In this document: positions 1,034 through 61,916 of the stretch, piece after piece
Position numbering within the stretch: the first letter of the stretch is position 1
Layout: each line of letters opens with the position of its first letter
Assembly (NCBI GenBank): GCA_963846445.1
Contig: CAWJWM010000004.1
Span: 59,879-123,878, forward strand
Direction: 5' to 3'
Length of the DNA: 64,000 nt
DNA from: an uncultured Verrucomicrobiae bacterium
GTDB taxonomy: Bacteria > Verrucomicrobiota > Verrucomicrobiia > Limisphaerales > J093
Notes under the pieces: generated by a model
The model's database searches: none
What the model saw: only the letters and a program-made list of their open reading frames with translations
What the model was told of the DNA's origin: nothing
Translations under genes and position numbers: made by a program

Positions 1034-1682
1034 CGAGGCGCGCCTCAGACCAAATCCCAATCTTCGACATCATGAACCGCCCTTTCGTATTCCTGCCCTT
1101 CTCTCCCGCGCCTCGCTCCTTAGAATCCTTGCGAAACGAAAGGGATAGGGGTGAAGGCCAAACTTGACTTGATCGCAACATGTTCGGGGCTTCAAGGATT
1201 CTAGCCTGCTCCATCTACCCAACATCTGAACAAAACAGTCAAGTTTTCCGCGAAGCGGAACGGAGGATTCCAACGAAGCTCCGCGTTCGGACGGCCCCAT
1301 CAGTACCAGCAGAATCGAAAGCCCAGGCTCGCTCGTCGGTTTGAGGCGGAGCTTCGTTGGAATCCTTGACCGGTGAAACTCGTAGTAATCAAGTCAAGTT
1401 TGTGCGCTGCGTTGAAAGGGTCAAGGAGTTCTACAGAGCGAGGCGCGGGACAGAGGTAAGGGAAGGCATGGCGACTGTTCGTGAAGGCGAGGATCGCAAA
1501 TGGTCCGGGGCGCGCCTCGCTGGAGTGACTTCTCTTTCAGAATCTGTACTGAATGGGTCAAGTTGTTGCGCCGCGCAGCGGCGCCCCTTTTAGCGAGGCG
1601 TCGACTGCCGGTGACATAGGTCAAGGCCCAACCCAGACAATCTGGCAAGGTGCCGCGTCGGTCTGAGGCGCAGCCTCGCTAA
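1031..1682. repeat. cluster of modular intergenic repeats: C 1031-1133, D 1134-1204, 20-bp IR pair 1264-1283/1337-1356, D' 1360-1431, C' 1432-1522, B' 1523-1589, A 1590-1682
   Basis: Each module recurs elsewhere in the window. A/C termini share AGCGAGGC(N3)GCCTC. D has GAATCCTTGACC/GGTCAAGGATTC inverted ends. 1360-1682 is the reverse complement in module order of 39803-40122. Confidence 0.8.
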
Positions 1683-1850: not shown

Positions 1851-2012
1851 ATGTCAAAGTCAAACGACATCATCACCAATGCGGTCAGCAATGCCAAACA
1901 CCCGTTCCCACAAGTCGATGACCGCCCCGGCAAATCGAAAAAACACCGGTACGAACGACGCAAGGTCAAGGAGTATATCAAACTCGGCGATTGGTCCGAG
2001 CAGACAGCTTAG
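1851..2012 (+). CDS. hypothetical small basic protein (53 aa), speculative
   Basis: ATG-to-TAG ORF read by hand: MSKSNDIITNAVSNAKHPFPQVDDRPGKSKKHRYERRKVKEYIKLGDWSEQTA. It sits in a locally lower-GC island between repeats, and its stop is supplied by the TTAG of the next repeat. No recognisable family. Confidence 0.2.
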   Translation: MSKSNDIITNAVSNAKHPFPQVDDRPGKSKKHRYERRKVKEYIKLGDWSEQTA

Positions 2013-2100
2013 CGAGGCGCGCCTCAGACCATTTGTCATTCTCAACTTCATGGACAGTCTCCATCCGTTCTTTTCCCTCTCTCCCCGCCTCGCTCTTTAG
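2009..2100 (+). repeat. module C repeat copy, directly abutting the 3' end of the group II intron
   Basis: TTAGCGAGGCGCGCCTCAGACC...CCGCCTCGCTCTTTAG. Same family as 1031-1133 and 39961-40051. Confidence 0.8.
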
Positions 2101-4060: not shown

Positions 4061-4340
4061 GCCCGCATTTCTCACCAACTTTTGATGTCGTCTGACCAGT
4101 CACCGTCACATTGCACCTGAAATGCGGGCTCTCAGAAACCCGCGCCCCAAGCAGATGGACCCAATCTCGACCACACTGTGCCCGCGTGCCCGGGTCGCCC
4201 ACGCGGCAGGGGCGCGTCCCGGCTCTGATGAACCGATGAGCCAATTCCCTTTGATGGGCGCGGGTTTCACAGACCCGGAAACCTCACCCACGGACCGTCA
4301 GGAATGCTACGACCGCCCCACTGGTGAGATTTCCGGGTTA
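4061..4340. repeat. composite repeat: 70-nt hairpin element H1 (4061-4130), segment X (4131-4195), unique Y, 45-nt segment Z (4297-4340)
   Basis: H recurs at 36842-36909, 42544-42613 and 60118-60187. X matches the reverse complement of 60053-60117. Z matches 42614-42658. Z contains the tnpA stop and may be a Tn3-type terminal IR. Confidence 0.75.
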
Positions 4341-4787
4341 GGCCTGGATGAAGGGTCGTAACGGCCTGAAGTTGTTCGGCTGAATCCTGCCACTCTCGGG
4401 CCAGAAATAATCGCCGGTCAGATTGATGTGCTCCCAGCCTAGCGGTGAGAGGTGCTGGAGCAGAGTCTGATCGACCGCCTGGCCGTGATCCCTGATCGCG
4501 CTGACCGTACTCGACCCAGCTTTCCGGTGGGATGTTGAGCTGCGTTGCCACCAAGCTCAACAGGGGCGCGGAGGGTTGCTCGTTCGCGCCCAGAACATCA
4601 TGCCTGGGTAGCGCATGTAGCGGAGCTGCACAGCATAGCCCAGCCGATTGGCCGCCCCGCGACATTTCTGGATGACCGACAGGTCAGACTCGCTGAGGGT
4701 GTAGTGGCGGATCAGCTCGCTTGGTTCGTTAGGCGGAGCGAGATGACTCTCGCGTTCGGCGGCGGAAAGGAGCGCACGGCGCGGCAC
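4338..4787 (-). pseudogene. tnpA: Tn3-family transposase remnant: N-terminus joined to extreme C-terminus, internally deleted and frameshifted
   Basis: N-terminus MPRRALLSAAERESHLAPPNEPSELIRHYTLSESDLSVIQKCRGAANRLGYAVQLRYMRYPG. By hand translation the 3' part reads [34 protein letters not shown]...RPLRPFIQA*, the typical last ~50 aa of Tn3-type TnpA. The ~850 aa in between are missing. Confidence 0.8.
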
Positions 4788-4790
4788 AGA

Positions 4791-5125
4791 TCACCGCTTC
4801 GGCCACAGATATTGATAAAGCGTCTCGCGACTGATCCGTAAGTCGAGGGCAACCTTGACCTTCGATTCCCCGGCCTCGATGCGCCGCCTCATCTCGGCGA
4901 CCTGCTCGTCGTTCAGCGCCCGCTTGCGGCCCCGGTAGGCACCGCGTTGCTTGGCCAGCGCGATCCCCTCACGCTGACGTTCGCGGATCAACGCTCGCTC
5001 GAGAATTCGGCGAAGGCCCCCATCACTGACAGCATCAGGTTGGCCATCGGGGAGTCCTCGCCGCTGAAGACCAGGTGCTCCTTAAGGAATTCAATCCGCA
5101 CGCCCCGCTTGGTCAAGCGGGGCGC
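4791..5125 (-). pseudogene. tnpR: serine recombinase (Tn3-type resolvase) remnant, N-terminally truncated and frameshifted
   Basis: LTKRGVRIEFLKEHLVFSGEDSPMANLMLSVMGAFAEF, then a shift, then LIRERQREGIALAKQRGAYRGRKRAL...HTH tail ISRETLYQYL. The catalytic N-terminal part is absent. Confidence 0.75.
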
Positions 5126-14875: not shown

Positions 14876-15020
14876 ATGAACCTCGACACAGAAAGCGGCG
14901 GTAAACCGCCGCACTCCAAACGCTGCCGCGCCGTCGTGTGCGGCCTCGAACATCGTGACGCGTCTGGAGTGCGGCGGTATACCGCCGCTTTAGGTTCCTG
15001 TCCACTGAGCAGTCCAAGAA
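14876..15020. repeat. module E palindromic repeat
   Basis: 32-nt arms AAAGCGGCGGTAAACCGCCGCACTCCAAACGC (14892-14923) and its near-perfect reverse complement (14960-14991, 30/32). Related copies at 50501-50655, ~30060-30440 and ~9340-9470. Confidence 0.8.
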
Positions 15021-15037
15021 GTAACAGGTCGCTTCCC

Positions 15038-28303: not shown

Positions 28304-28503
28304 AGCGTTCACAAAGGGCGCATGACATTTCCGGCCTCGGGCAGATCGGCCAAGTCCGCCGCGGCTGACGCTGTCTGTCCTTGCCACCAAAGACGCACGG
28401 CCGTCACGCGAGTGTTGTCCCTGTCCCTCGCTCGTTTCAAGGATTCTGTTGGTGGCTGTTCGTGGCTTGCCGCGGCTGCGGCTTCCGTGTATGCCTGCCG
28501 GCC

Positions 28504-30015
28504 ATGCACACCGGCACTCCCCGCCGCTCCGGGTGGCGGCGTCTCCTGCGATGGACTGTCTGCGCCGCTCTCCTGGTCGTCGCGCTGGTCTTCCTGCGCT
28601 CCTGGCACGCCTTGCGCGACCGCAATCCGGGCTACACACTCGGACTGGACATCGACGCGGCTCCATCCGTCGCCGCCCCTCGCCCCCTGCAGGTCGGTTT
28701 CGGGCGCCTGCCCATCAACCCCAATCTCTCGAATCCCAAACGTCCAGTCTGGCTGGCCGGGTTCAGCCAGAACCGCGCCGCAACCGCCCTGCACGATAGT
28801 CTGTGGGCGCATGCCTGCGTCCTCGAGGACGGCGACACGCGCCTGGGCGTGGTGTCACTCGATGCGATCGGCTTCTTCCACGACGACGTCATCGAGGTGC
28901 GCCGCCGGTTGGATCCGGCCTGGCGCCTCGATTACACCGTCGTGTGCGCGACGCACAACCACTCGACCCCTGACCTCATGGGCTTGTGGGGGCCGCATCC
29001 GCTCAAGTCCGGCGTGGATGCGCAATACCGGGAGCAGGTCATCACGGCGGTCGCTCACGCATTGGGCCAGGCGGTCGAGGCGCTCGAACCGGCGCGCGTG
29101 GCTTTTCACGAAATCCCGTTGCCCACGGACGGTTTGGTGCACGACTCACGCAAGCCGATCGTATTCGACGCCAACCTGCGGGTCATGCATTTCACCCAGC
29201 CCGAGACCGGGGCCACGCTGGGCACAGTGATCGGGTGGGGCAATCACCCCGAAACGGTGTGGGGAAAGAACACGGAGATCACCTCGGACTTCTGCGGGTA
29301 CCTGCGCGAGGCCCTCGAAAAGGGTGTGCTCCTCGACGGGCAGAGACACGCCGAGGGACTGGGCGGCATCCACGTCTATGTCACCGGCGCCGTGGGCGGC
29401 CTGATGACCACATCCCCGTCGGTGACTGTTCGCGACCCTTATCTCGATCGAGAGTTCCAGGAGCCCTCGCACGACAAAGCGCGGGCGTTGGGACATCAAC
29501 TGGCGTCGAGACTGTTGCCCGTGTTGCGCGCGTCCGATGCGGCTGCGGCCCAGCACGCGCCGATCTCCATCCGCGCGCGCACGGTGGAACTGCCCATTGA
29601 GAACGGGGTGTTTCTGCTGGCGCCGGTCCTGGGGATTCTCGATCGCGGGCATGTCCGCTGGAAGACGCTGCGCACGGAGATCGCGCTGATCACGGTCGGC
29701 GACGCCAGCATCGCGTGTTTGCCGGGCGAGGTCTATCCGGAGATTGTCAACGGCGGCATCGAACGGGCGCCGGGCGGGGACTTCGACATCGAGCCGGTCG
29801 AGGTGCCGCCGCTGCGCGCGCTGATGCCGGGCAAGGTCAAGTTTGTGTTCGGTCTCGCCAACGACGAGATCGGCTACATCATTCCCAAGAGCCAGTGGGA
29901 CCGGAAACCGCCCTACCTGTACGACTCGCGCCGGCCCGTGTACGGCGAGATCAACTCCGTCGGTCCCGAGACCGCCGCCCGGCTTCACGCCGCCTTTCGC
30001 GATCTGCATGATTAG
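28504..30015 (+). CDS. neutral/alkaline-ceramidase-like membrane-anchored hydrolase (family-level call only)
   Basis: N-terminal TM segment; VGFGRLPINP...LAGF; LWAHACVLEDGD..LGVVSLDAIGF; CATHNHSTPD. The TAG stop is followed directly by CGAGGCGCGCCTCAGAC of a repeat. Confidence 0.55.
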   Translation: MHTGTPRRSGWRRLLRWTVCAALLVVALVFLRSWHALRDRNPGYTLGLDIDAAPSVAAPRPLQVGFGRLPINPNLSNPKRPVWLAGFSQNRAATALHDSLWAHACVLEDGDTRLGVVSLDAIGFFHDDVIEVRRRLDPAWRLDYTVVCATHNHSTPDLMGLWGPHPLKSGVDAQYREQVITAVAHALGQAVEALEPARVAFHEIPLPTDGLVHDSRKPIVFDANLRVMHFTQPETGATLGTVIGWGNHPETVWGKNTEITSDFCGYLREALEKGVLLDGQRHAEGLGGIHVYVTGAVGGLMTTSPSVTVRDPYLDREFQEPSHDKARALGHQLASRLLPVLRASDAAAAQHAPISIRARTVELPIENGVFLLAPVLGILDRGHVRWKTLRTEIALITVGDASIACLPGEVYPEIVNGGIERAPGGDFDIEPVEVPPLRALMPGKVKFVFGLANDEIGYIIPKSQWDRKPPYLYDSRRPVYGEINSVGPETAARLHAAFRDLHD

Positions 30016-30440
30016 CGAGGCGCGCCTCAGACGGGCGAGGCGTCTTACCAGATCGTTCGCGAGGGTCTCAGAGCGGCAGAAGACTGCCGCACTCCAAAAC
30101 GCTCCGCGCGGTCCGGAGACGTCCGAAAAAGCGCCAGTCCCGCGGCTGCGCATACGCGTCAACCTAAGCGACGTTTAACAGCCAGGGCCAAAGTGACTGC
30201 TCCTGCAATGATCCGAGTCGCTAGTAAGGCGTGGTTTGCAGAGGGAGCTGCTTTGGTCGGACGGTGGAGAAGTCGCGCAGTCCCGCGCCGGCGGGAGAGT
30301 GCGGCGGTTTACCGCCGCTTTACGAACACGGTGGTCGGTGTGTCCCACGCAAAGCGGTGCTGAAGCACCGCAGTCTCCCGCGGCCGCGGGACTCCGCGCT
30401 GTCGAGAACGCTCGTGCCCAAGTAGCTCTGTCGATTGGCG
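30013..30440. repeat. intergenic repeat cluster: partial module C plus module E-type copies
   Basis: TTAGCGAGGCGCGCCTCAGAC at 30012-30032. CTGCCGCACTCCAAAACGC and GAGTGCGGCGGTTTACCGCCGCTTT motifs as in 14892-14991. Confidence 0.7.
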
Positions 30441-34328: not shown

Positions 34329-34349
34329 CACAGGAGCGAAAAGATTGAG

Positions 34350-34512
34350 AATTCTTGAACGTCAAAACACGCGGCAGACAAGTCAAGTTTGGCCCCGCTC
34401 TCTGAAGGGTTCAAGGATTCCACTGAGCGAGGCGCGGGGAAGAGGGGATGGGAAACACGGAGACTGTTCATGGAAATGAGGAATGGGTTTGATCTGAGGC
34501 GGCGCCTCGCTG
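34350..34512. repeat. module D (34350-34420) plus module C' (34421-34512)
   Basis: GAATTCTTGAAC...AAGTCAAGTT...GGTTCAAGGATTC, then CACTGAGCGAGGCGCGG...GCGCCTCGCTGG. Confidence 0.75.
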
Positions 34513-34581
34513 GAAGTCCTTTACACCCCGGCCGAGTTTTCGGTCCTGCCGCAGCGCGACCTCAGCGAGACGGCGTGTGTC

Positions 34582-36841: not shown

Positions 36842-36909
36842 CCCGCATTTCAGGTGAACTGGGACGGTGACCGGTCAGATGACATCAAGAGTGGGTGAGA
36901 AATGCGGGC
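36842..36909 (+). repeat. 70-nt-class hairpin element H2, flanked by TTA direct repeats
   Basis: CCCGCATTTC...TGACCGGTCA...GAAATGCGGG. TTA at 36839-36841 and at 36910-36912; the second TTA is the complement of the TAA stop of the upstream permease gene. Confidence 0.8.
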
Positions 36910-38660
36910 TTACATCTCGAACTGGCCGACGCGCCGCAGGCTCAGGCGCAGGGGCAGCCAGCCGACCAAGGCGGACAGCAGCGCAAACGCCATCCAACCG
37001 GGCAAGACGCTGGAACTGCTCGGTTCGCCGTATCGCGTCCACGGCGAGCTGACAGCCAGAAGGACAACGGACGCGACAATGTAGAGGAAGCTGGCGACCA
37101 GGCAGAACGTGCCGCCGAAGCCGCTGACGATCTTGCTGGGATTGTCCTCCTTGAGGTTCGGGTAGAGCGCGCCGAGGCCGATGGCGAGCCCGTTCAGGGT
37201 GAACGCCATGACGGCGATGGCGCGCGGTGAGGTAGAGCGTCCGGTCCCACGTCGAGCATCGAGCATCCGGCACGAGAGGACGATCAGGCCCGGCGGTGAG
37301 GCCGAGCGACAGGGCGCTGTGCCGAGCGCGAACTTGGCCAGCAGCAGCCGCGGCAGGCCGAGCGGCGCCATCCCGACGATCCAGAGCCGCTTGCCTTCGA
37401 GGGAGAACTGCGGATAGACGAAACCGCGTCGTCAGCGTGGCCAGGTTCAGCGCGCAGGCGCCGAGGTTCAAGTAGGACACCACGGTGATCCAGAAGGGGC
37501 TGGTCAGTTGCTGGCTGAAGTGGCGGAGGTTGAGGATGTACACCGCCAGCAAGCCGAACAGCACCAGCGTCTGCCCCCATTGGGTCGTGTCCCGCCAGAA
37601 CAGGCGCATGTCCTTCACGATCAGCGGCGCGGATGTCGGCGCGGACGGTCGGGATCCAGGCCAGAGCCGCGCTCGAGCCGGCCCGGTCGCACCGGGCGCG
37701 GCCGGCGGCACGTTCCTGCCAGGCCCGGAACCACGTCCACCGGCCCAGGACGCTGCCGCGGCTCTGGACCATGCGACGCGGCGCCGTAGAACAGGCCTGC
37801 CCATGCGGGTGAACATGAGGCGTGCCGAAGAAGAGCACGTGGCTGAGCAGCACCAGCCCGAAGAACAGCGCCGCCGCCAGCGCGCCTTCGGCCCATTGCT
37901 GGACGCCCGCCGAAAGCCAGTAGCTGGGCAGCAGCGGAAAGATGGCGAAGCGCGTGCGCGCCAGCAGCTTGTCCAGCACCACCAGCACCCGGGTCTCGAG
38001 TTCGTCGTCGGTGACCTGCATCGGGCGCAGCCAGAAGGCCGTCGACTGCCACCAGCGCCGCCGCCGTCACCAGGGCGGTGATCTGGAAGGCCCGGCGGTC
38101 GAGGAACCGGGCCAGTGACGGCCAACCAGCGCCGCCGCCGCCGGCAGCACGATGAACAGCCCAGGAACAGCGAGCGTGCCGGGATAGAAATGCCACGGGA
38201 CACCCGGCTCAGCCCGTAGGCGGCGAGCAGCGGGGCGATCAGAAACAGGAACGCCCACGAGGCCAGCAGCGTGGACTCGATGAACTTCCAGCGAAAGATC
38301 GACCTCGGGCGGCACCGGCAGCGGCAGCAGGAACGCCGTCTCGCGGTTCCGGAACAGGTTCGAGTAGCTGATGACCAGGTTGCTCAGGAGCAGCAAGCAC
38401 GAACAGAAAGGCGAAGAGCAGAAAGAGCATCCGCTCGATCAGGACGGCGCCCAGCCCGGGGAAGCTGCCGGCGAACCGCAGTCCGACTTTGGAAGAGTTT
38501 GAAGGCGAGCGCGGCGTAGCCGACGAGGAAGACCACGATCAGGCCGGTGAGCAGGCGGGACTGCTCGGCGCAGCGCCAGCAGGCGCCGCCAGCCCTGGCG
38601 CAGGTTCACCTGGAGCAGCAGCGCCAGCGGGGCGGGCGTGGCGGGGCGGTGCGTGTTCAT
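36910..38660 (-). CDS. multi-pass ABC-exporter permease-like membrane protein; at least 5 frameshifts
   Basis: Hydrophobic segments are spread over 4 ORF fragments (38439-38675, 38067-38396, 37284-38021, 36910-37371). It lies downstream of an ABC ATPase on the same strand. Family assignment is weak. Confidence 0.5.
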
Positions 38661-38953
38661 GGGAAGCGTTGACATTCAACGATTTAATGCGAATCGGGAA
38701 CATGAACCGAAGTTACCTGCTCCTAATCGTAATCGTAATCGTAATCCGCTGTCGCCGATTAAGATTAAGATTAGGATTAGGACCACCTGCCGTGCTCATG
38801 GGAAGCACCTGTTCCTTGTCAAACTGCTCAGTGAACATGAACCGTGCACTTTGCCCCTCACCCGTCCCGCAAAGCGGGACACCCTCTCCCCCGCTCCGAG
38901 CGGGGGAGAGGGACGGGGTGAGTGGGCACGGTTCATGGAGGGCAAGCGCCTGC
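38661..38953. repeat. module F repeat cluster splitting the ABC ATPase and permease genes; includes an AT-rich hexamer microsatellite at 38722-38782
   Basis: GCGTTGACATTCAA, CACCTGTTCC..AACTGCTCAGTG..CATGAACC and the CCCCTCACCC...GGGAGAGGGACGGGGTGAG hairpin are all shared with 59640-59955. Confidence 0.75.
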
Positions 38954-39733: not shown

Positions 39734-39802
39734 GTTTTCGCTCCTGCGTCGCGAAAACATACCGGCCCCGCTGCGCGGGGCACGAGCGGGAACGACAACA
39801 TT

Positions 39803-40122
39803 TTAGCGAGGCTTCGCCTCAGACCGGCGAGGCGTGTGAACGACTTGTGACCGCCGGGTGCCAACCACGATCACCGGCGCCCGACGCCTCGCTAAGGGGC
39901 GCCGCTGCGCGGCGCAGAAACTTGACTCATTTATATCAGATTTCATCGAGGGAGTCACTCTAGCGAGGCGCGCTTCAGACCAAATCCCGATCTTCGACAT
40001 CATGAACCGCCCTTCGTTTTCCTGCCCTTCTCTCCCGCGCCTCGCTCCTTAGAATCCTTGACCCCTTTAACGCAGCACAACAACTTGACTTGTCTACAAC
40101 ACCTTTCACCGGTCAAGGATTC
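39803..40122. repeat. composite repeat A' (39803-39895), B (39896-39960), C (39961-40051), D (40052-40122)
   Basis: Inverted counterpart of 1360-1682. D is flanked by TA on both sides (40050-51 and 40123-24). Confidence 0.85.
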
Positions 40123-40937
40123 TACAGGGCCGCGATGGCTTCGTTGACGAGGACAATCTCATTCGGGAGTTCGACTCGGAGGATTTCGCCCACGCGGCTG
40201 ACCACGACGGACGCGCGGTACTTGTCGAGGAGCCCGGCCTCGATGCGGTAGGCGCGCACGCGCGAGTGGCCGAGGTTGAACCAGTCGGTCCGGGCCTCCC
40301 ACGTCAGCGCGCGGGCGAGGCTGGCCGCGTCAGGCGCCTTGAACTCTGGAACCAGCGCGGGGAGCCAGGCGATTGCCGGCGGCAGACCGAGTCGGGTCAG
40401 GAGCGTCTCGGGGCGGGCGAGATCCGCGAAGGCGAGGGTCTGCTCCCAGGCGCCCCCGCCTTCGTCGACGCGCAAGACGACCTGCTCGGCGCCGGCGTCG
40501 GCCTTGAGTTCCCAGATCGTCGGTCGGAGATTCAAACGGAGCTGGAACTTGCGCCACACTTGGTTGGTTCCGAACTCGGCCCGGGTGGCGAACCGCAGCC
40601 GCCGCGTCGAATCCTCGAACAAGAGGTTGCCGTCCAGATCGATTGTGTAGCCGGTGAAACCCCGAATCCGGCCTTCGATGGCGTGCGGGTCGGTTTCGGT
40701 CGATGCGCCGGCGGTTTCGTCGATGGTTGCCACCCAGCGGCAGAATCCGATCTTCTGGCCCCGATGGAGAATCTGGAGGGAGGAATCGTCAGGGGCGGTA
40801 AGCATCCGTTCCCACACGGTGGCGAGGGGCACTCGGCTGCCGCGGTTCTGCAGGCTGCTCATTTCCGAGCGCCACAGCAGGACGTTCATGACCACCCAGA
40901 ACAGGATGACCAGGGGGAAGTACACCCGTTTGAGCAT
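40122..40937 (-). CDS. hypothetical membrane-anchored protein
   Basis: 271-aa intact ORF with N-terminal TM segment VYFPLVILFWVVMNVLLW. No recognisable family. Its TAG stop is formed by the TA flank plus the last base of module D. Confidence 0.6.
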   Translation of the reverse strand: MLKRVYFPLVILFWVVMNVLLWRSEMSSLQNRGSRVPLATVWERMLTAPDDSSLQILHRGQKIGFCRWVATIDETAGASTETDPHAIEGRIRGFTGYTIDLDGNLLFEDSTRRLRFATRAEFGTNQVWRKFQLRLNLRPTIWELKADAGAEQVVLRVDEGGGAWEQTLAFADLARPETLLTRLGLPPAIAWLPALVPEFKAPDAASLARALTWEARTDWFNLGHSRVRAYRIEAGLLDKYRASVVVSRVGEILRVELPNEIVLVNEAIAAL

Positions 40938-42437: not shown

Positions 42438-42543
42438 AGGATTCTCGTTCTTGATTCGTTCTGAGTCGGTGCGCGGGCCACGACGCAACCGCGGCAATGT
42501 ATAGTCGCGGGCAGACCGGGTGTCAAATCGCGCAGCCTCGCGA

Positions 42544-42747
42544 GCCCGCATTTCTCACCAACTTTTGATGTCTTCTGACCGGTCACCGTCCCATTGCACC
42601 TGAAATGCGGGCTGTCAGGCATGCTGCGACCGCCCCACTGGTGAGATTTCCGGGTTAGCGAGGCGTCGAATGCCGGTGAGGTTTGTAGCAGCCCAGCGTA
42701 GACGAGCCGTTCACAGGTCGCGTCGGTCTGAGGCGCAGCCTCGCTAA
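42544..42747. repeat. hairpin H3 (42544-42613), segment Z copy (42614-42658), module A (42655-42747)
   Basis: H and Z match 4061-4130 and 4297-4340. Module A runs TTAGCGAGGCGTCG...GGTCTGAGGCGCAGCCTCGCTAA. Confidence 0.8.
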
Positions 42748-43853
42748 AGGCTATCGACGAGCTTCTGCATGGCTTCCTCCTGGCGGGCAATCGACTCGAC
42801 GAGCCGGAACTGGGTGCGGCAGCGGTCGAGGTTGTGGTCTGAACGATGCACGCGGAAGTAGACATCGCCCATGAGATAATCGGCCAGGAAACGAATGCCG
42901 ATCGTGTAGGTGATCAGCTTGCCCGCAAAGGCCAGGTAACGCCGCTCGGACGGCGTGAGGAACTCCTCGACGGCTTTCACGTATCCGCGGGCCAACGCTT
43001 CGAACATCGGCATTTGCATTTCGACCTTCGTGAGGTCCTGTTCGTCTTCGAGTGTCGGGCTGGTCGTCGTGCGCACCATGTCGCCGAAGTCGTAGTGCAC
43101 CAACCCCGGCATGACCGTGTCCAGATCGACCACGCACATGGCCCGCCCCGTCTCCCAATCGAGCATCACGTTGTTGAATTTCGTGTCGTTGTGCGTGATG
43201 CGCTCCGGGACATCGCCCGCGGCATGGGCGTCGAGCAACGTGCCGATCCAGGACTCCTGTTTGAGCGCGAACTCGATTTCCCGGGCTGCGGTCGAGGCGC
43301 GATTGCAGTGGTCTTCGGCGATGGCCCGCTGCAGGGTGTCGAAGCGCTTTCGCGTGTTGTGGAAATCCGGAATGGTCTCGTGCAGGCGTTCGCCGGGAAG
43401 ATCGGCAACCAACGACTGGAACTCGCCAAACGCCCGCCCAGCCTCGTAGGCCTGCGTCGGGTTCTGAACCGACTCGAATGACTGGACTCGTTCCACAAAA
43501 ACAAAGGTCCGCCAGAACTCGCCGTTCCCGTCGCAGTAGTAGGGCTTTCCGTCCCGGGTCGGCACGATGGTCAAAGCCCGGCGGGTCATCTGGCGGGCCG
43601 TCAGGTTTTGCAGTTTGTTCCGCAGGTGGCTTGTGACCCGCATCACGTTCTCCATCACGCCGACCGGGTTCCGGAAAACGCTCTGGTTGATCCGCTGGTG
43701 AATGTAGCGGACGAGGATCCCGCCCTGATCGTACGTCGCGGTGTAGGTCTCGTTGATGTGCCCGATCTTGCACGCTTCGGCGTGCAGGATTTGTCCGTAG
43801 ATCTGGAACTGGCGCGATACTTCCTGCAGATGCTGCTCACAGTACAATGGCAT
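42744..43853 (-). CDS. APH-fold sugar/aminoglycoside-type kinase, N-acetylhexosamine-1-kinase (NahK)-like
   Basis: GHINETY; ITHNDTKFNNVMLD; VVDLDTVMPG..HYDFGD. The start is taken at MPLYCEQ. Its TAG stop lies inside the terminal TTAGCGAGGC of module A. Confidence 0.65.
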   Translation of the reverse strand: MPLYCEQHLQEVSRQFQIYGQILHAEACKIGHINETYTATYDQGGILVRYIHQRINQSVFRNPVGVMENVMRVTSHLRNKLQNLTARQMTRRALTIVPTRDGKPYYCDGNGEFWRTFVFVERVQSFESVQNPTQAYEAGRAFGEFQSLVADLPGERLHETIPDFHNTRKRFDTLQRAIAEDHCNRASTAAREIEFALKQESWIGTLLDAHAAGDVPERITHNDTKFNNVMLDWETGRAMCVVDLDTVMPGLVHYDFGDMVRTTTSPTLEDEQDLTKVEMQMPMFEALARGYVKAVEEFLTPSERRYLAFAGKLITYTIGIRFLADYLMGDVYFRVHRSDHNLDRCRTQFRLVESIARQEEAMQKLVDSL

Positions 43854-44117
43854 ACGCTCGTGCGAACCCCGCGCCCTCCCACCGTGATCGGACGGCGAAG
43901 TGCGGCGTCGGTTTGGCACCGGTAGAGATAGACGAACTCCAGGCCCAAACAAGCCAATTTCTCGAGCTTCCGCTTCCAGACTCCCGTTCGTTTTGGGCCG
44001 CCGCCCGATTCACCTTGAAGTGGGCTCCGGCGCGCGGGTATGCTCCGGCCAGCCGAAAGAACAGACTCTCCTGTGGGTCAGGCAGAATTTGAAGGCCAAC
44101 GTATTGGGAGCAAACCG

Positions 44118-49246: not shown

Positions 49247-49303
49247 ACACGCAGCACACAAACTTGACTCGTCTACACCAAGTTTCGCCGGTCACGGATT
49301 CTC
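49247..49303 (+). repeat. partial module D
   Basis: ACGCAGCACACAAACTTGACTCGTCTACACC...GGTCACGGATTC; compare 40070-40122. It contains the TGA stop of the convergent gene 49292-50452. Confidence 0.65.
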
Positions 49304-50500: not shown

Positions 50501-50655
50501 CATGAACCTCGACACGGAAAGCGGCGCTGAAGCGCCCGCACTCTCACGTAGCGCGGGACTTCGCGCTCTCGACTGCGGGTGGCAAGGTCGCGAAGCGCTT
50601 GGAGTGCGGCGGTTTACCGCCGCTTTAGGTTCACGGCCACTGAGCAGTTCAACAA
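50501..50655. repeat. module E repeat copy
   Basis: CATGAACCTCGACACGGAAAGCGG...GGAGTGCGGCGGTTTACCGCCGCTTTAGGTTC..CCACTGAGCAGTTCAA matches 14876-15020. It contains the stop of gene 50649-51137. Confidence 0.8.
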
Positions 50656-51137
50656 GGAACATCTGGCTTCTTTTCATTCGTTGGGGCCGGCGCCGAAGCA
50701 GGGCCCAGTTGCCTGACGAGTCGGGCAACGACTTCCACGGCGGCAGGAATGCCTCTTTGGGCCGCGGCGGAAAGCGGCTGTCCGAGTTCGGTTGACTCGA
50801 TCTGCACCTTGACAAGCCAGGCGGCCGGGCACCGCCCGAACACGGCCTGGGCCAGAGCCAGCAGCGACTCGGGATCGCTCGTGTGTCCCAGGGGCCGACG
50901 CAGGTCAACCGGGCGACATGGCGTGACCTCGACTTGCCCGGGCGGGCCGTCCAGGGCGGCATCGACGAAAATGGCGGTGTCGGACTGGGACACCATTTCG
51001 GCAAGCTCGGGGGTGAGTCCTGCAGCGCCGTGCACGCGCGTGTCCGGCAGGTTGAACGCCGCCAGGGCTGCGGCCACCCGCGGCCCGACGGCGTCGTCGC
51101 CGCGCAGTTCGTTGCCATAACCAATCACAAGAATCAT
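50649..51137 (-). CDS. hydrogenase maturation endopeptidase (HyaD/HybD/HoxW, peptidase A31) homologue
   Basis: MILVIGYGNELRGDDAVGPRVA...AIFVDAA...LGHTS. These match the GNxxxxDD, D and H metal-ligand positions of the family. No hydrogenase genes are in the window. Confidence 0.7.
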   Translation of the reverse strand: MILVIGYGNELRGDDAVGPRVAAALAAFNLPDTRVHGAAGLTPELAEMVSQSDTAIFVDAALDGPPGQVEVTPCRPVDLRRPLGHTSDPESLLALAQAVFGRCPAAWLVKVQIESTELGQPLSAAAQRGIPAAVEVVARLVRQLGPASAPAPTNEKKPDVPC

Positions 51138-59639: not shown

Positions 59640-60255
59640 GGCACGCCGCCCCGGATGGCGATACCGAAATGGCAGGCCCAGGGAGCGCGTTGACATTCAA
59701 AGACTCAATGCCCATTGGGACCGTGAATCTTGCGCATTCCCCCTCACCCGCCCTACGGGCACCCTCTCCCACGCTCCGACCAGCGGGAGGGACGGCGTGG
59801 AGAGAGCCACCTGTTCCTTTATGAACTGCTCAGTGGCCATGAACCTGTACCGCCGGCTTTCCAGCCGGCTCGGGGGCAGTCACATGAGATTCCACCGTGC
59901 CGACCTGGAGGTCGGCGGTACGGGGGAGGTTCATGGAGAGAGGGTACTGTTTATGGAGGTTAGCGAGGCTTCGCCTCAGACCGGCGAGGCGTGTGAACGG
60001 CTTGTGGCCGCTCGGTGCCCGCCACGATCACCGGCGCCCGACGCCTCGCTAACCCGGGCACGCGGACACAGTGTGGTCGAGATTGGGTCCATCTGCTTGG
60101 GGCGCGGGTTTCTGACAGCCCGCATTTCAGGTGCGATGTGACAGTGACCGGTCAGATGACATCAAAAGTTGGTGAGAAATGCGGGCTAAGGGGCGCCGCT
60201 GCGCGGCGCAAAAACTTGGCTCATTGACTACAGATTTCAAACGAGGAGTAACTCT
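59640..60255. repeat. repeat cluster: module F (59640-59955), A' (59960-60052), inserted X-H unit (60053-60185), B (60190-60255)
   Basis: Same modules as 38661-38953, 39803-39960 and 4061-4195. CTAA occurs at both junctions of the X-H insert (60049-52 and 60186-89). Confidence 0.85.
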
Positions 60256-60290
60256 TGCGCGGTTTGCCGGACTGTGGCCTGCTTCGGACC

Positions 60291-60999: not shown

Positions 61000-61249
61000 A
61001 GAGCGAGGCGTCGGACGCCGGTGATCGTGGTGGACACCCAGCGGCCACGAGCGGCTCGCACGCCGCGCTGGTCTGAGGCGAAGCCCCGCTAAAGTGACTC
61101 CTCGTTTGAAATCTGTAGTCAATGAGTCAAGTTTTTGCGCCGCGCAGCGGCGCCCCTTAGCGAGGCGTCGGACGCCGGTGATCGTGGTGGACACCCAGCG
61201 GCCACGAGCGGCTCGCACGCCGCGCTGGTCTGAGGCGAAGCCCCGCTAA
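61000..61249. repeat. A (61000-61092), B' (61093-61156), A (61157-61249): near-identical 92-bp direct repeat around an inverted B module
   Basis: The two A copies are identical by eye apart from the first base or two. The cluster ends one base before the ATG at 61251. Confidence 0.9.
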
Positions 61250-61250
61250 A

Positions 61251-61916
61251 ATGAATGCGGTCGAACCGCCCATGGAGAGGCGCGCTTTCACGTTGATCGA
61301 GTTGCTGGTGGTCGTCGCCATCATCGGCATTCTCGCTGGTTTGCTGCTGCCGGGGCTGAGCCGGGCCAAGCAACAATCCCGGTTGACCGCGTGCTCGTCG
61401 AACCTGCGGCAACTGGGCCTGGCGCTGGCCCTGTATGTGGATGGCGCGGGGCAGCGCTTTCCGCGCGCTGACTTCAGCGACAATCGGCTGGGATTGCCTC
61501 CCGCCACCCACACGAATTCCCTCCGGCAGACGCTGTCACCTTACGTGCCCGTGGAGCGTCTCTTCCTCTGTCCCACGCTGCGCCAGCAGGCCGGGCGGTC
61601 GGTGGATTATCTCACCGATTACAATTACCTCTGCGTGCACGGCTGGAGCCTGGTGCCGTTTTTTGGCGGCTTCGACAACGACCGGTCCGGCGTCTGCGAT
61701 CAAGCGATGGCGGACATCCGCCGTTCCTCGGAAAAGCCCATGATCGTCTGCGACGGCATGGGGGAGCACGTCGGTGTATCGGGGGACGCGGTGTTCAACC
61801 AGGGAATGGGTGGCGTGCGTGGCGCGCAGAACACGCTTTTCGTGGACGGGCACGTCGGTCTGGTGCGAGGCACCCTTCAAGATATCATGGCCATCTATCA
61901 GTCACCGAATCAATGA
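61251..61916 (+). CDS. prepilin-type N-terminal cleavage/methylation-domain protein (DUF1559-like)
   Basis: [26 protein letters not shown]; C-terminal FVDGHV motif. The true start may be the Met at 61272. Confidence 0.8.

Follow-up and report, generated by a model that had tools for sequence, protein, structure and literature searches.

Paired miniature mobile elements form an intergenic repeat mosaic in a Verrucomicrobiota genome and probably derive from a widespread element of 1.8–1.9 kb

A repeat of approximately 320 bp lies at positions 1360–1682 of a 64-kb stretch of contig CAWJWM010000004.1 from an uncultured Verrucomicrobiae bacterium (64,000 nucleotides, hereafter the window), and it raises the question of what such a repeat is and how it came to occur again, inverted, approximately 38 kb away. 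An earlier note described it as a composite of four modules (A, B, C, and D) of unrecognised sequence families, present as one inverted pair in a mosaic resembling bacterial interspersed mosaic elements (BIMEs). BLASTN of the window against itself confirmed the colinear inverted match, with 39801–40122 aligning to 1684–1360 of the opposite strand (74.5% identity over 329 columns; E value, 1.4e-49) and with the module order A′-B-C-D at 39.8–40.1 kb facing D′-C′-B′-A at 1360–1684. Every further placement that had been listed was also recovered by BLAST, namely C+D (1030–1204), C (2009–2100), D+C′ (34348–34514), A (42655–42748), A′+B (59960–60262), and A-B′-A (61002–61253). The host belongs to Verrucomicrobiota, as judged from MnmE homologues, and has a G + C content of 65%; a planctomycete host, suggested by a DUF1559/N_methyl protein, was discarded on this ground, and exact-protein searches with three window genes gave no match. 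All copies are intergenic, lying between open reading frames (ORFs) rich in G + C at third codon positions that encode housekeeping proteins such as PrmA, MnmE, AceE, MutY, and OGG.

The composite is best read as two adjacent non-coding miniature mobile elements of approximately 160 bp each, AB and CD, arranged head-to-tail with one CTAG common to both. These elements are probably non-autonomous derivatives that have each been reduced to the unlike left and right ends of a larger mobile element and that insert at CTAG. AB consists of a left-end hairpin (A) followed by a small GC hairpin and a right end (B), and CD consists of a left-end hairpin (C) and a right-end hairpin (D). In each unit, the left-end (LE) hairpin reads (C/T)TAG-CGAGGC-N3/4-GCCTCAGACC, and the right-end (RE) hairpin reads AAACTTGACT...CAAGGATTCTAG. 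The division into four modules thus gives way to one into two-part elements, in which A and C are left ends and B and D are right ends. AB and CD are conserved as whole units in other genomes: AB aligned over its whole length with elements in metagenome-assembled genomes (MAGs) of Acidobacteriota and Gammaproteobacteria, and CD with seven copies in Verrucomicrobiota MAGs, the aligned outside elements being approximately 115–185 nt long. These full-length alignments of A+B and C+D identify AB and CD as the natural units. The two ends of a unit are unlike, LE showing no resemblance to RE when the latter is reverse-complemented; the units therefore have no terminal inverted repeats, and inverted ends are found only on the sub-hairpins A, C, and D.

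Units measure approximately 160–175 bp, and 14 copies or fragments in mixed orientation make up, by themselves, approximately 3% of the window. The pattern AGCGAGGC-N3/4-CCTCAGACC occurred six times in the window against 0.00 expected, AACTTGACT eight times against 0.15, and AGCGAGGC alone 30 times against 4.9. The alignments agreed with the earlier description in that module ends are conserved and centres diverge. DNA folding gave z-scores of −1.8 to −3.9, with centroid structures keeping only the terminal closing stems, so that each module as a single strand is a hairpin held chiefly by its terminal stem. Modules were said to occur alone as well; this holds for A, C, and (as a fragment) D, but B was always joined to A in the window. 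Among 99 LE matches in other genomes, the RE core followed within 330 nt in 40, a closing arm without RE was present in 20, and neither was found within that distance in 39.

The source of these ends was found outside the window. A scan of 185,579 species genomes for AGCGAGGC-N3/4-CCTCAGACC returned at least 114 loci, about the number expected by chance for 17 fixed bases in 596 Gb (approximately 140). A chance origin was nevertheless ruled out by conserved bases that the pattern left unspecified: the two positions preceding it held C in 100 of 118 matches and T in 98 of 118, the matches had a downstream GACGAG-N-(A/G)TG in common, and AACTTGAC followed within 300 nt in 37. The matches came from Acidobacteriota, Verrucomicrobiota, Planctomycetota, Alpha-, Beta-, Gamma-, and Deltaproteobacteria, Nitrospirota, Methylomirabilota, and others, complete chromosomes included, with near-identical end sequences in at least six phyla. 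At eight of the loci, an ORF of approximately 533 amino acids (aa) began 130–290 nt downstream of the LE motif, and its stop codon was directly followed by AAACTTGACTCA, approximately 30 nt, and CAAGGAnTCTAG, a sequence that forms the core of both module B and module D.

The element with this LE and RE, approximately 1.8–1.9 kb long, occurs in Acidobacteriota, Verrucomicrobiota, Planctomycetota, Proteobacteria, and Actinomycetota. From left to right, this parent element comprises the left end, CTA(A/G)-CGAGGC-N4-GCCTCAGACC-GACGAG with a small hairpin inside; a structured leader of approximately 100 nt; one 533-aa ORF; and the right end, AAACTTGACTCA-N~29-TCAAGGAnTCTAG, which begins at the ORF stop codon. 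In 80 metagenome loci selected on protein similarity alone, LE (mostly CTAACGAGGCTCCGCCTCAGACC) lay 133–344 nt upstream of the ORF in 65, and the AAACTTGACTCA core of RE stood just past the ORF in 69, nearly all of which run on to a terminal CTAG. The LE hairpin GAGGC-N4-GCCTC showed the compensatory form GGGGC/GCCCC in three loci (L176, L188, and L194) and in the Rhodococcus copy, and the RE stems were CTTGAC...GTCAAG or TGACTC...GAGTCA. Profile hidden Markov models built solely from the ends of 64–67 protein-coding elements found the A and C copies of the window with the LE profile (E values down to 2e-10) and the B and D copies with the RE profile (E values down to 5.5e-7). The window modules are homologous to the two ends of the parent element.

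Seven identical copies in different contexts and one empty site show that the parent element moves, with CTA(A/G)...CTAG as its borders. The seven copies, all from one sample, were identical from CTAG/CGAGG to ...ATCTAG/ (slashes mark boundaries) and had unrelated flanks. On the plasmid pSBC2-3 of Caballeronia sp. SBC2, the element (554076–555889) reads ggacatt/CTAACGAGG..1814 bp..AATCTAG/attcgc, and two related Burkholderia plasmids read ggacattCTCGactcgc where pSBC2-3 carries the 1814-bp insertion. For the copies in Rhodococcus and in Burkholderia YI23, no empty counterpart could be identified, since every related record was occupied or rearranged. Many homologues of the 533-aa protein were encoded on stand-alone contigs of 1.8–2.0 kb. 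In one contig (L200; Ga0055474_10014406, 1988 nt), the left end stands at the start and right end-CTAG-left end at the finish, the arrangement expected if a circular or tandem form had been assembled; in another (L195), the right end is followed by ...CTAAtagCTAGCGAGG. In many genomes, LE was followed by hairpins of short tandem repeats, for example ATGGACGCT five times, GGTTCCG four times, CCGATA eight times, CACGGAT(A/T)AA, or GTTGTCA four times (L005, L024, L026, L040, L041, L044, L046, L055, L057, L058, L067, L075, L086, L091, L093, and others).

In the window, the repeat at issue is the right-hand AB+CD pair of a longer array at 1030–1682. The array opens with a CD-type element of 175 bp at 1030–1204 on the plus strand (RE profile at 1160–1204, E value 5.5e-7; LE profile at 1030–1052, E value 0.01), with the C hairpin CTAG/CGAGGCGCGCCTCAGACC...CGCGCCTCGCTCCTTAG and the D hairpin AATCCTTG...AAACTTGACTTG...TTCAAGGATTCTAG. 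It has CTAG at 1030 and 1201, the PrmA gene (98–1033) terminates on its first TAG, and it is colinear with the seven Verrucomicrobiota copies. Tail-to-tail with it, sharing the palindromic CTAG at 1201–1204, lies a degenerate AB-like element on the minus strand at 1201–1359 that the earlier account had overlooked (LE profile at 1358–1331, E value 7e-4; AACTTGACT at 1237–1245 of the minus strand). This element has the LE CCAACGAAGCTCCGCCTCAAACCGACGAG, a small GC hairpin, and then AAACTTGACTG...GCAGGCTAG, and its closing arm is a 21-bp perfect inverted repeat (1264–1284 and 1347–1367). With this element included, 1030–1682 is one uninterrupted array of four elements. The D′+C′ half of the composite is a CD-type element at 1356–1523 on the minus strand with decayed borders, CCAG and CCAA (RE profile at 1401–1360, E value 1.1e-4; alignments and folds), and the B′+A half is an AB-type element at 1520–1682 on the same strand (LE at 1681–1656, E value 7.2e-8; RE at 1564–1539, E value 0.23). 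The latter consists of the A hairpin TTAG/CGAGGCTGCGCCTCAGACC...GCCTCGCTAA, a GGGGCGCCGCtgcGCGGCGC hairpin, and AACTTGACCC...GAAGTCACTCCAG, and it aligned with the Acidobacteriota and Gammaproteobacteria elements.

The second AB+CD pair, at 39803–40125 on the plus strand, is formed by an AB-type element at 39803–39963 (LE at 39804–39840, E value 2.2e-10; RE at 39918–39947, E value 1.3e-3; fold) and a CD-type element at 39960–40125 (RE profile at 40082–40124, E value 7.9e-4), with the CTAG at 39960–39963 common to both. The terminal CTA of the CD element is, on the minus strand, the TAG stop of gene 40122–40937, and the element was 81% identical over 186 bp to a Verrucomicrobiota MAG sequence (L096). 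A further CD-type element lies on the minus strand between OGG-like and ComB genes at 34348–34513 (RE at 34390–34348, E value 2.8e-3; LE at 34511–34493, E value 4.8e-3; BLAST). Two more AB-type elements are present: one at 61093–61250 on the minus strand (LE at 61248–61227, E value 2.4e-5; RE at 61134–61109, E value 1e-3) and one at 59960–60255 on the plus strand (LE at 59961–59997, E value 2.7e-10; RE at 60212–60237, E value 0.03; fold). The latter, recovered by BLAST as A′+B, is longer only because an unrelated 135-bp MITE (a transposable element of the miniature inverted-repeat type) is inserted between A and B at 60052–60186. A solo A hairpin at 61002–61096 on the minus strand (LE profile at 61091–61070, E value 2.4e-5) is 99% identical to the A of 61093–61250, with which it is arranged head-to-tail on a common TTAG. 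The remaining copies are a solo C at 2009–2100 (plus strand; LE profile at 2010–2030, E value 0.024), an LE fragment at 30012–30045 (plus strand; LE profile at 30013–30043, E value 0.047) that begins at the TAG stop of gene 28381–30015, a solo A at 42655–42747 (minus strand; LE profile at 42746–42721, E value 5.3e-8) whose TTAG provides the stop codon of an APH-family gene (42744–43952), and a solo D-type right-end fragment at 49249–49302 (plus strand; RE profile at 49260–49297, E value 2.7e-5).

Units open with (C/T)TA(G/A) and close with CTAG, and adjoining units have one tetranucleotide in common. Since the left CTAA is conserved in approximately 50 independent full-length copies, a 4-bp duplication of CTAG is excluded. 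Insertion into the TA of CTAG is compatible with every junction, the tail-to-tail pair at 1201–1204 included, and would give the same borders as an exchange at TA of the recombinase type that proceeds through an RE-LE circle. IS630 is cited as targeting TA, preferentially within 5′-CTAG-3′ (Tenzen and Ohtsubo, 1991, cited in PMC2170065). The window contained 10 CTAG sites, three of which are element borders, compared with 67 ± 8 in dinucleotide-preserving shuffles, an approximately 6.7-fold depletion in which every shuffle scored higher. CTAG avoidance is known in many bacteria, and the depletion here coincides with an element family that apparently targets CTAG. Across genomes, the TAG of LE ended an ORF of at least 100 codons in 28 of 88 cases, compared with 11 and 17 in the other two frames; in the window, PrmA and genes 28381–30015, 40122–40937, and 42744–43952 take their stop codons from elements. 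An O-methyltransferase gene has a possible TTG start at 60255, and the GAGGAG 7 nt upstream of that codon belongs to the right end of an AB element (60185–60262); this element end may supply the ribosome-binding site of the gene.

How the same order of modules came to stand at two sites can be judged from the identities of the single modules. The two composites shared 72% (A), 81% (B), 74% (C), and 79% (D) identity, and closer copies were found elsewhere for three of the four (A39803/A59960, 94%; B39896/B61157, 89%; C39959/C1030, 95%). Because A, B, and C are each nearer to an outside copy than to their partner, the two composites were assembled independently and are not one inverted pair, and the AB+CD arrangement arose at least twice. 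Duplication of a single 320-bp composite in inverted orientation, whether by segmental duplication or by transposition of the whole, is highly improbable; it would explain the equal order and relative orientation at both sites and the 329-bp colinear alignment, but D alone is reciprocally closest. The head-to-tail join on one shared tetranucleotide was seen again at 61002–61250, and closely spaced or abutting head-to-tail copies were also present in locus L030 and in the full-length contig L200. The same order can thus arise repeatedly, which also counts against inverted duplication.

Re-assortment of the modules was borne out in the window, where C1030 and C39959 are 95% identical and their D modules only 62–64%, and in a relative with 96–98% identity; such relatives are represented in Logan runs SRR30949866–881. 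After the orthologue of gene 40122–40937, this relative carries a single hybrid element (L215/L216 compared with 39803–40125), in which the tail of D is joined at AACTTGACT to the GC hairpin of B and to A; the hybrid equals the window composite minus approximately 167 nt between its two AACTTGACT cores. Compared with the L210 sequence of this relative (96–97% identical), colinearity of the window stops exactly at the TAG of the LE fragment at 30013, where the fragment puts TTAG in place of the TAA stop of the relative. The elements mark recent points of deletion or rearrangement, and the arrays change over short evolutionary time. We attribute the re-assortment to recombination or deletion at shared motifs, not to four independent families.

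Taken together, the probable course of events is that miniature copies would be moved in trans by the 533-aa protein, which would recognise LE and RE, and would insert into the palindromic CTAG (or TTAG/CTAA), most simply leaving the central TA on both sides. As CTAG is scarce and each insertion adds border CTAGs, new insertions would be expected to fall on TAG stop codons and on the edges of copies already in place. Such insertions would build head-to-tail and tail-to-tail arrays, the mosaic seen in the earlier note, and recombination at the shared CTAG/TTAG and at AACTTGACT would then re-assort the left-end and right-end hairpins.

Several observations weigh against this explanation. No copy of the 533-aa gene was found within the 64-kb window, and the one close relative compared offered no empty site for a miniature element, being occupied at 40.1 kb and not colinear with the window past 30014. 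The sole empty site of the parent element reads CTCG, not CTAG, in relatives of 87% identity. Several window copies have decayed borders (CCAG, CCAA, and CTAC) and a mutual identity of 60–80%, which makes many of them old and perhaps no longer mobile. Each of A, C, and D has TA-flanked terminal inverted repeats of its own and also occurs solo, and the discordant identities of C and D fit independently mobile single hairpins. Finally, the 533-aa protein has no recognisable catalytic domain and could be a passenger rather than a transposase.

Close homologues of the 533-aa protein numbered more than 8000, with 15,094 representatives after clustering at 50% identity, and wherever the protein was labelled, among other places on Caballeronia, Burkholderia, Paraburkholderia, Rhodococcus, and Mycobacterium plasmids, it was named "hypothetical." It had no match in Pfam or NCBIfam at E ≤ 0.01 and none in PHROGs, PADLOC, or PDB sequences, and no precomputed Pfam domain was present on the 120 homologues listed. 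Its acidic residues D23, D152/D154, E178, D195, E253, D261, and E337 are invariant. AlphaFold2 modelled the protein with moderate confidence (pLDDT 68.7), predicting a confident beta-rich N-terminal half without a PDB neighbour and a C-terminal MarR-like winged helix, for which alone structural neighbours were found. We infer a transposase function because this is the only ORF inside the mobile unit. We give slightly less than an even chance to the fuller proposal that it is a transposase or recombinase of an unrecognised superfamily, acting on unlike hairpin ends and CTAG, possibly through an RE-LE circle, with control or participation of the leader RNA, and that the window modules are its miniature parasites.

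The leader between LE and the ATG is approximately 100 nt long and is closed by GGCTCCGG...CCGGAGCC. This closing stem was present in 52 of 54 elements, ended 2–11 nt before the ATG, showed compensatory changes in six of its nine pairs, and covers the GGAG just upstream of the ATG. The elements compared were L126–L205, L088, L119, and L206; stem variants were GGCTCCGGT/ACCGGAGCC, CCTCTGGTT/AACCAGAGG, and GGGGCCCC/GGGGCCCC, and two to three hairpins were enclosed. The leader had no match in Rfam (18 + 17 related loci). It may serve the element either by occluding translation or as a functional RNA.

Among the other explanations, a live rival is that each hairpin (A, C, and D) is a TA-flanked MITE in its own right that moves separately, the composite being the product of three or four insertions. 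The termini invite this reading, as A is TA-GCGAGGC...GCCTCGC-TA and D is TA-GAATCCTTGACC...GGTCAAGGATTC-TA with 12-bp perfect inverted ends; solo copies of A (42655 and 61002) and C (2009), the D fragment at 49249, the 95% identity of C1030 and C39959 beside D partners at 62–64%, and the 20 LE matches elsewhere with a closing arm and no RE would all follow from it. B, however, has no inverted ends and never stands apart from A, and the orders C+D and A+hairpin+RE are kept at full length in distant genomes. Moreover, A and C carry only the left end of the parent and B and D only the right, as internal deletion of an asymmetric element predicts, and deletion or recombination also yields solo copies and discordant identities, as in the hybrid of the relative. 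We therefore consider separately mobile hairpins unlikely.

Repetitive extragenic palindromic (REP) elements, as BIMEs or as paired REPs (REPINs), spread by REP-associated tyrosine transposases (RAYTs; Y1 HUH) and kept for terminator or mRNA-stability roles, would likewise be intergenic, often directly after stop codons, with GC-rich hairpins in both orientations in mosaic clusters, and the head (C/T)TAG is one base off the REP head GTAG. REP classes have a GTAG or CGTC head beside a 20–40 bp palindrome (PMC3733652). The present heads are neither, the units are 70–95 bp, the same ends flank a 533-aa ORF without a Y1_Tnp match, terminator-like sites are not in excess, and near-identical ends span at least six phyla, whereas REP families are largely restricted to a family or lineage. 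A REP origin is accordingly most improbable, and what remains of the earlier description is a mosaic of small, palindromic, re-assorting intergenic repeats that differ from BIMEs in head, unit size, and partner protein. Very improbable, too, is the idea that the modules are genes for discrete structured RNAs (small RNAs or elements of 3′ untranslated regions) conserved for RNA function. They fold better than shuffled sequence (the z-scores above), they lie at gene ends, and one B copy immediately precedes a gene, its GAGGAG lying 7 nt ahead of the possible TTG at 60255. On the other hand, stability resides in the closing stems only, the interiors being free to diverge; promoter and terminator signals are at chance level; both orientations relative to neighbouring genes occur; and the conserved parts coincide with the ends of a mobile element. 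Rfam gave no family match for the modules even at E ≤ 1, in keeping with the earlier statement that their families were not recognised: searched at E ≤ 1, the two composites gave only a chance miRNA-hairpin match (18–19 bits against a cut-off of 80), and at the gathering threshold the whole window gave only a group II intron.

Four narrower readings were rejected. Integron attC sites have the form R″-L″...L′-R′ with GTTRRRY/RYYYAAC cores, in one orientation beside cassettes; the end sequences TTAGCGAGGC/GCCTCGCTAA, the mixed orientations, and the housekeeping neighbours did not fit. A link to Tn3 inverted repeats (GGTCTGAGGC resembling GGGGTCTGA) was judged a coincidence, the Tn3 remnant described below being separate. 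The TTGACT in B and D had no −10 element at 16–18 nt, and promoter scans were at chance. A 10-codon reverse-strand ORF (MPRRSEAEPR*) in LE had a start codon that was not conserved among the window copies.

Compared with known systems, AB and CD resemble the MITEs of IS630/Tc1-mariner elements in being small, non-coding, end-only derivatives of an autonomous element that are intergenic, multi-copy, and hairpin-forming, with (C/T)-TA-(G/A) borders on both sides, as would be expected from a TA duplication inside CTAG. Of what classically defines a MITE, they are short and multi-copy, carry no coding sequence, and have the ends of an autonomous element, but they lack terminal inverted repeats, LE being CGAGGC...CCTCAGACC and RE AAACTTGACT...CAAGGATTC. 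The 533-aa protein also differs from IS630/Tc1-mariner transposases, having no DDE_3, HTH_Tnp, or other Pfam/NCBIfam match and a winged helix at its C-terminus. Palindrome-associated transposable elements (PATEs), the miniatures of IS200/IS605, likewise have asymmetric ends with subterminal hairpins, no terminal inverted repeats, and a conserved border tetranucleotide, and their LE+RE derivatives likewise outnumber full copies. Unlike IS200/IS605, the parent of AB and CD has no Y1 HUH TnpA or TnpB (no Pfam match). Orientation in the window is mixed, unlike that of PATEs, and a tail-to-tail pair on one palindromic CTAG is hard to square with their element-encoded 3′ tetranucleotide and strand-specific insertion.

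With IS110/IS1111, the family shares dissimilar ends without inverted repeats, a short core at both junctions, an RE-LE junction (in one contig, L200), and a covarying structured non-coding segment between the left end and the ORF, but the 533-aa protein lacks DEDD_Tnp_IS110 (PF01548) and Transposase_20 (PF02371). As no target is conserved beyond the border tetranucleotide, a guide RNA such as the IS110 bridge RNA is not needed to explain targeting, and translational control suffices to explain the leader, whose stem covers the ribosome-binding site. With REP/BIME/REPIN elements, the likeness lies in extragenic palindromes that cluster as mosaics, take either orientation, and often stand at the ends of genes; the differences are the CTAG or TTAG heads, hairpins of 70–95 bp, another partner protein, and near-identity across phyla. 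A literature search for the family (end sequences, MITE/REP, and new insertion sequence families), a comparison that did not extend to ISfinder, found no description. The repeat is mobile-element debris of a familiar kind whose family appears to be undescribed and very widespread.

Small repeats are abundant in the window overall. A degenerate group II intron occupies 2100 to approximately 4031 on the minus strand (RF00029, domains V/VI, at 2100–2213; 51.8 bits), with its reverse-transcriptase ORF, in which a YADD motif is still present, in at least five frame-shifted pieces. At its 3′ end, the intron meets the TTAG that ends the solo C hairpin, where D would be expected, and its 5′ side is approximately 30 nt from the end of a copy of a separate MITE family, "E," so that the intron lies between two small repeats. 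E has the inverted ends CCCGCATTTCTCACCA/TGGTGAGATTTCCGGG and occurs at 4061–4341, 36842–36910, 42543–42654, and 60052–60186; the copy at 42543 abuts the solo A hairpin at TTAG, and the copy at 60052–60186 split the AB element and is flanked by a TAA duplication. On the minus strand at 4380–5110, visual inspection of the translation pointed to remnants of a Tn3-family transposon, namely the C-terminus of a resolvase, frame-shifted (...RERQREGIALAKQRGAYRGRKRALN...), and an N-terminal piece of a transposase; two of the 10 CTAG sites of the window fall in this region. At least two more palindromic repeat families with ends CATGAACC...GGTTCATG and with cores GAGTGCGGCGGTTTACCGCCGC and CCCTCACCCG...GGGTGAGKG were present (14876–15035, 30297–30331, and 50502–50670; 38794–38920 and 59724–59846), one of which was also found in the contig of the close relative (L210, 127–286).

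Taken alone, a cluster of small intergenic mobile repeats is routine, and the interest lies in the family behind them. An orphan 533-aa gene and its ends span bacteria from Acidobacteriota to Actinomycetota and are absent from Pfam, NCBIfam, PHROGs, PADLOC, Rfam, and PDB; NCBIfam holds the models that NCBI uses for insertion sequence annotation. If the protein is the enzyme, it would represent a new kind of DNA-moving machine, one with dissimilar hairpin ends and a palindrome of 4 bp as its target, and the family would be a cross-phylum insertion sequence family carried on plasmids of culturable Burkholderia, Caballeronia, Rhodococcus, and Mycobacterium. Recognition of the elements would improve the annotation of many soil and freshwater genomes, in which they supply stop codons, break assemblies, and mark points of rearrangement, and the family is one possible pressure on the strongly depleted CTAG of this genome.

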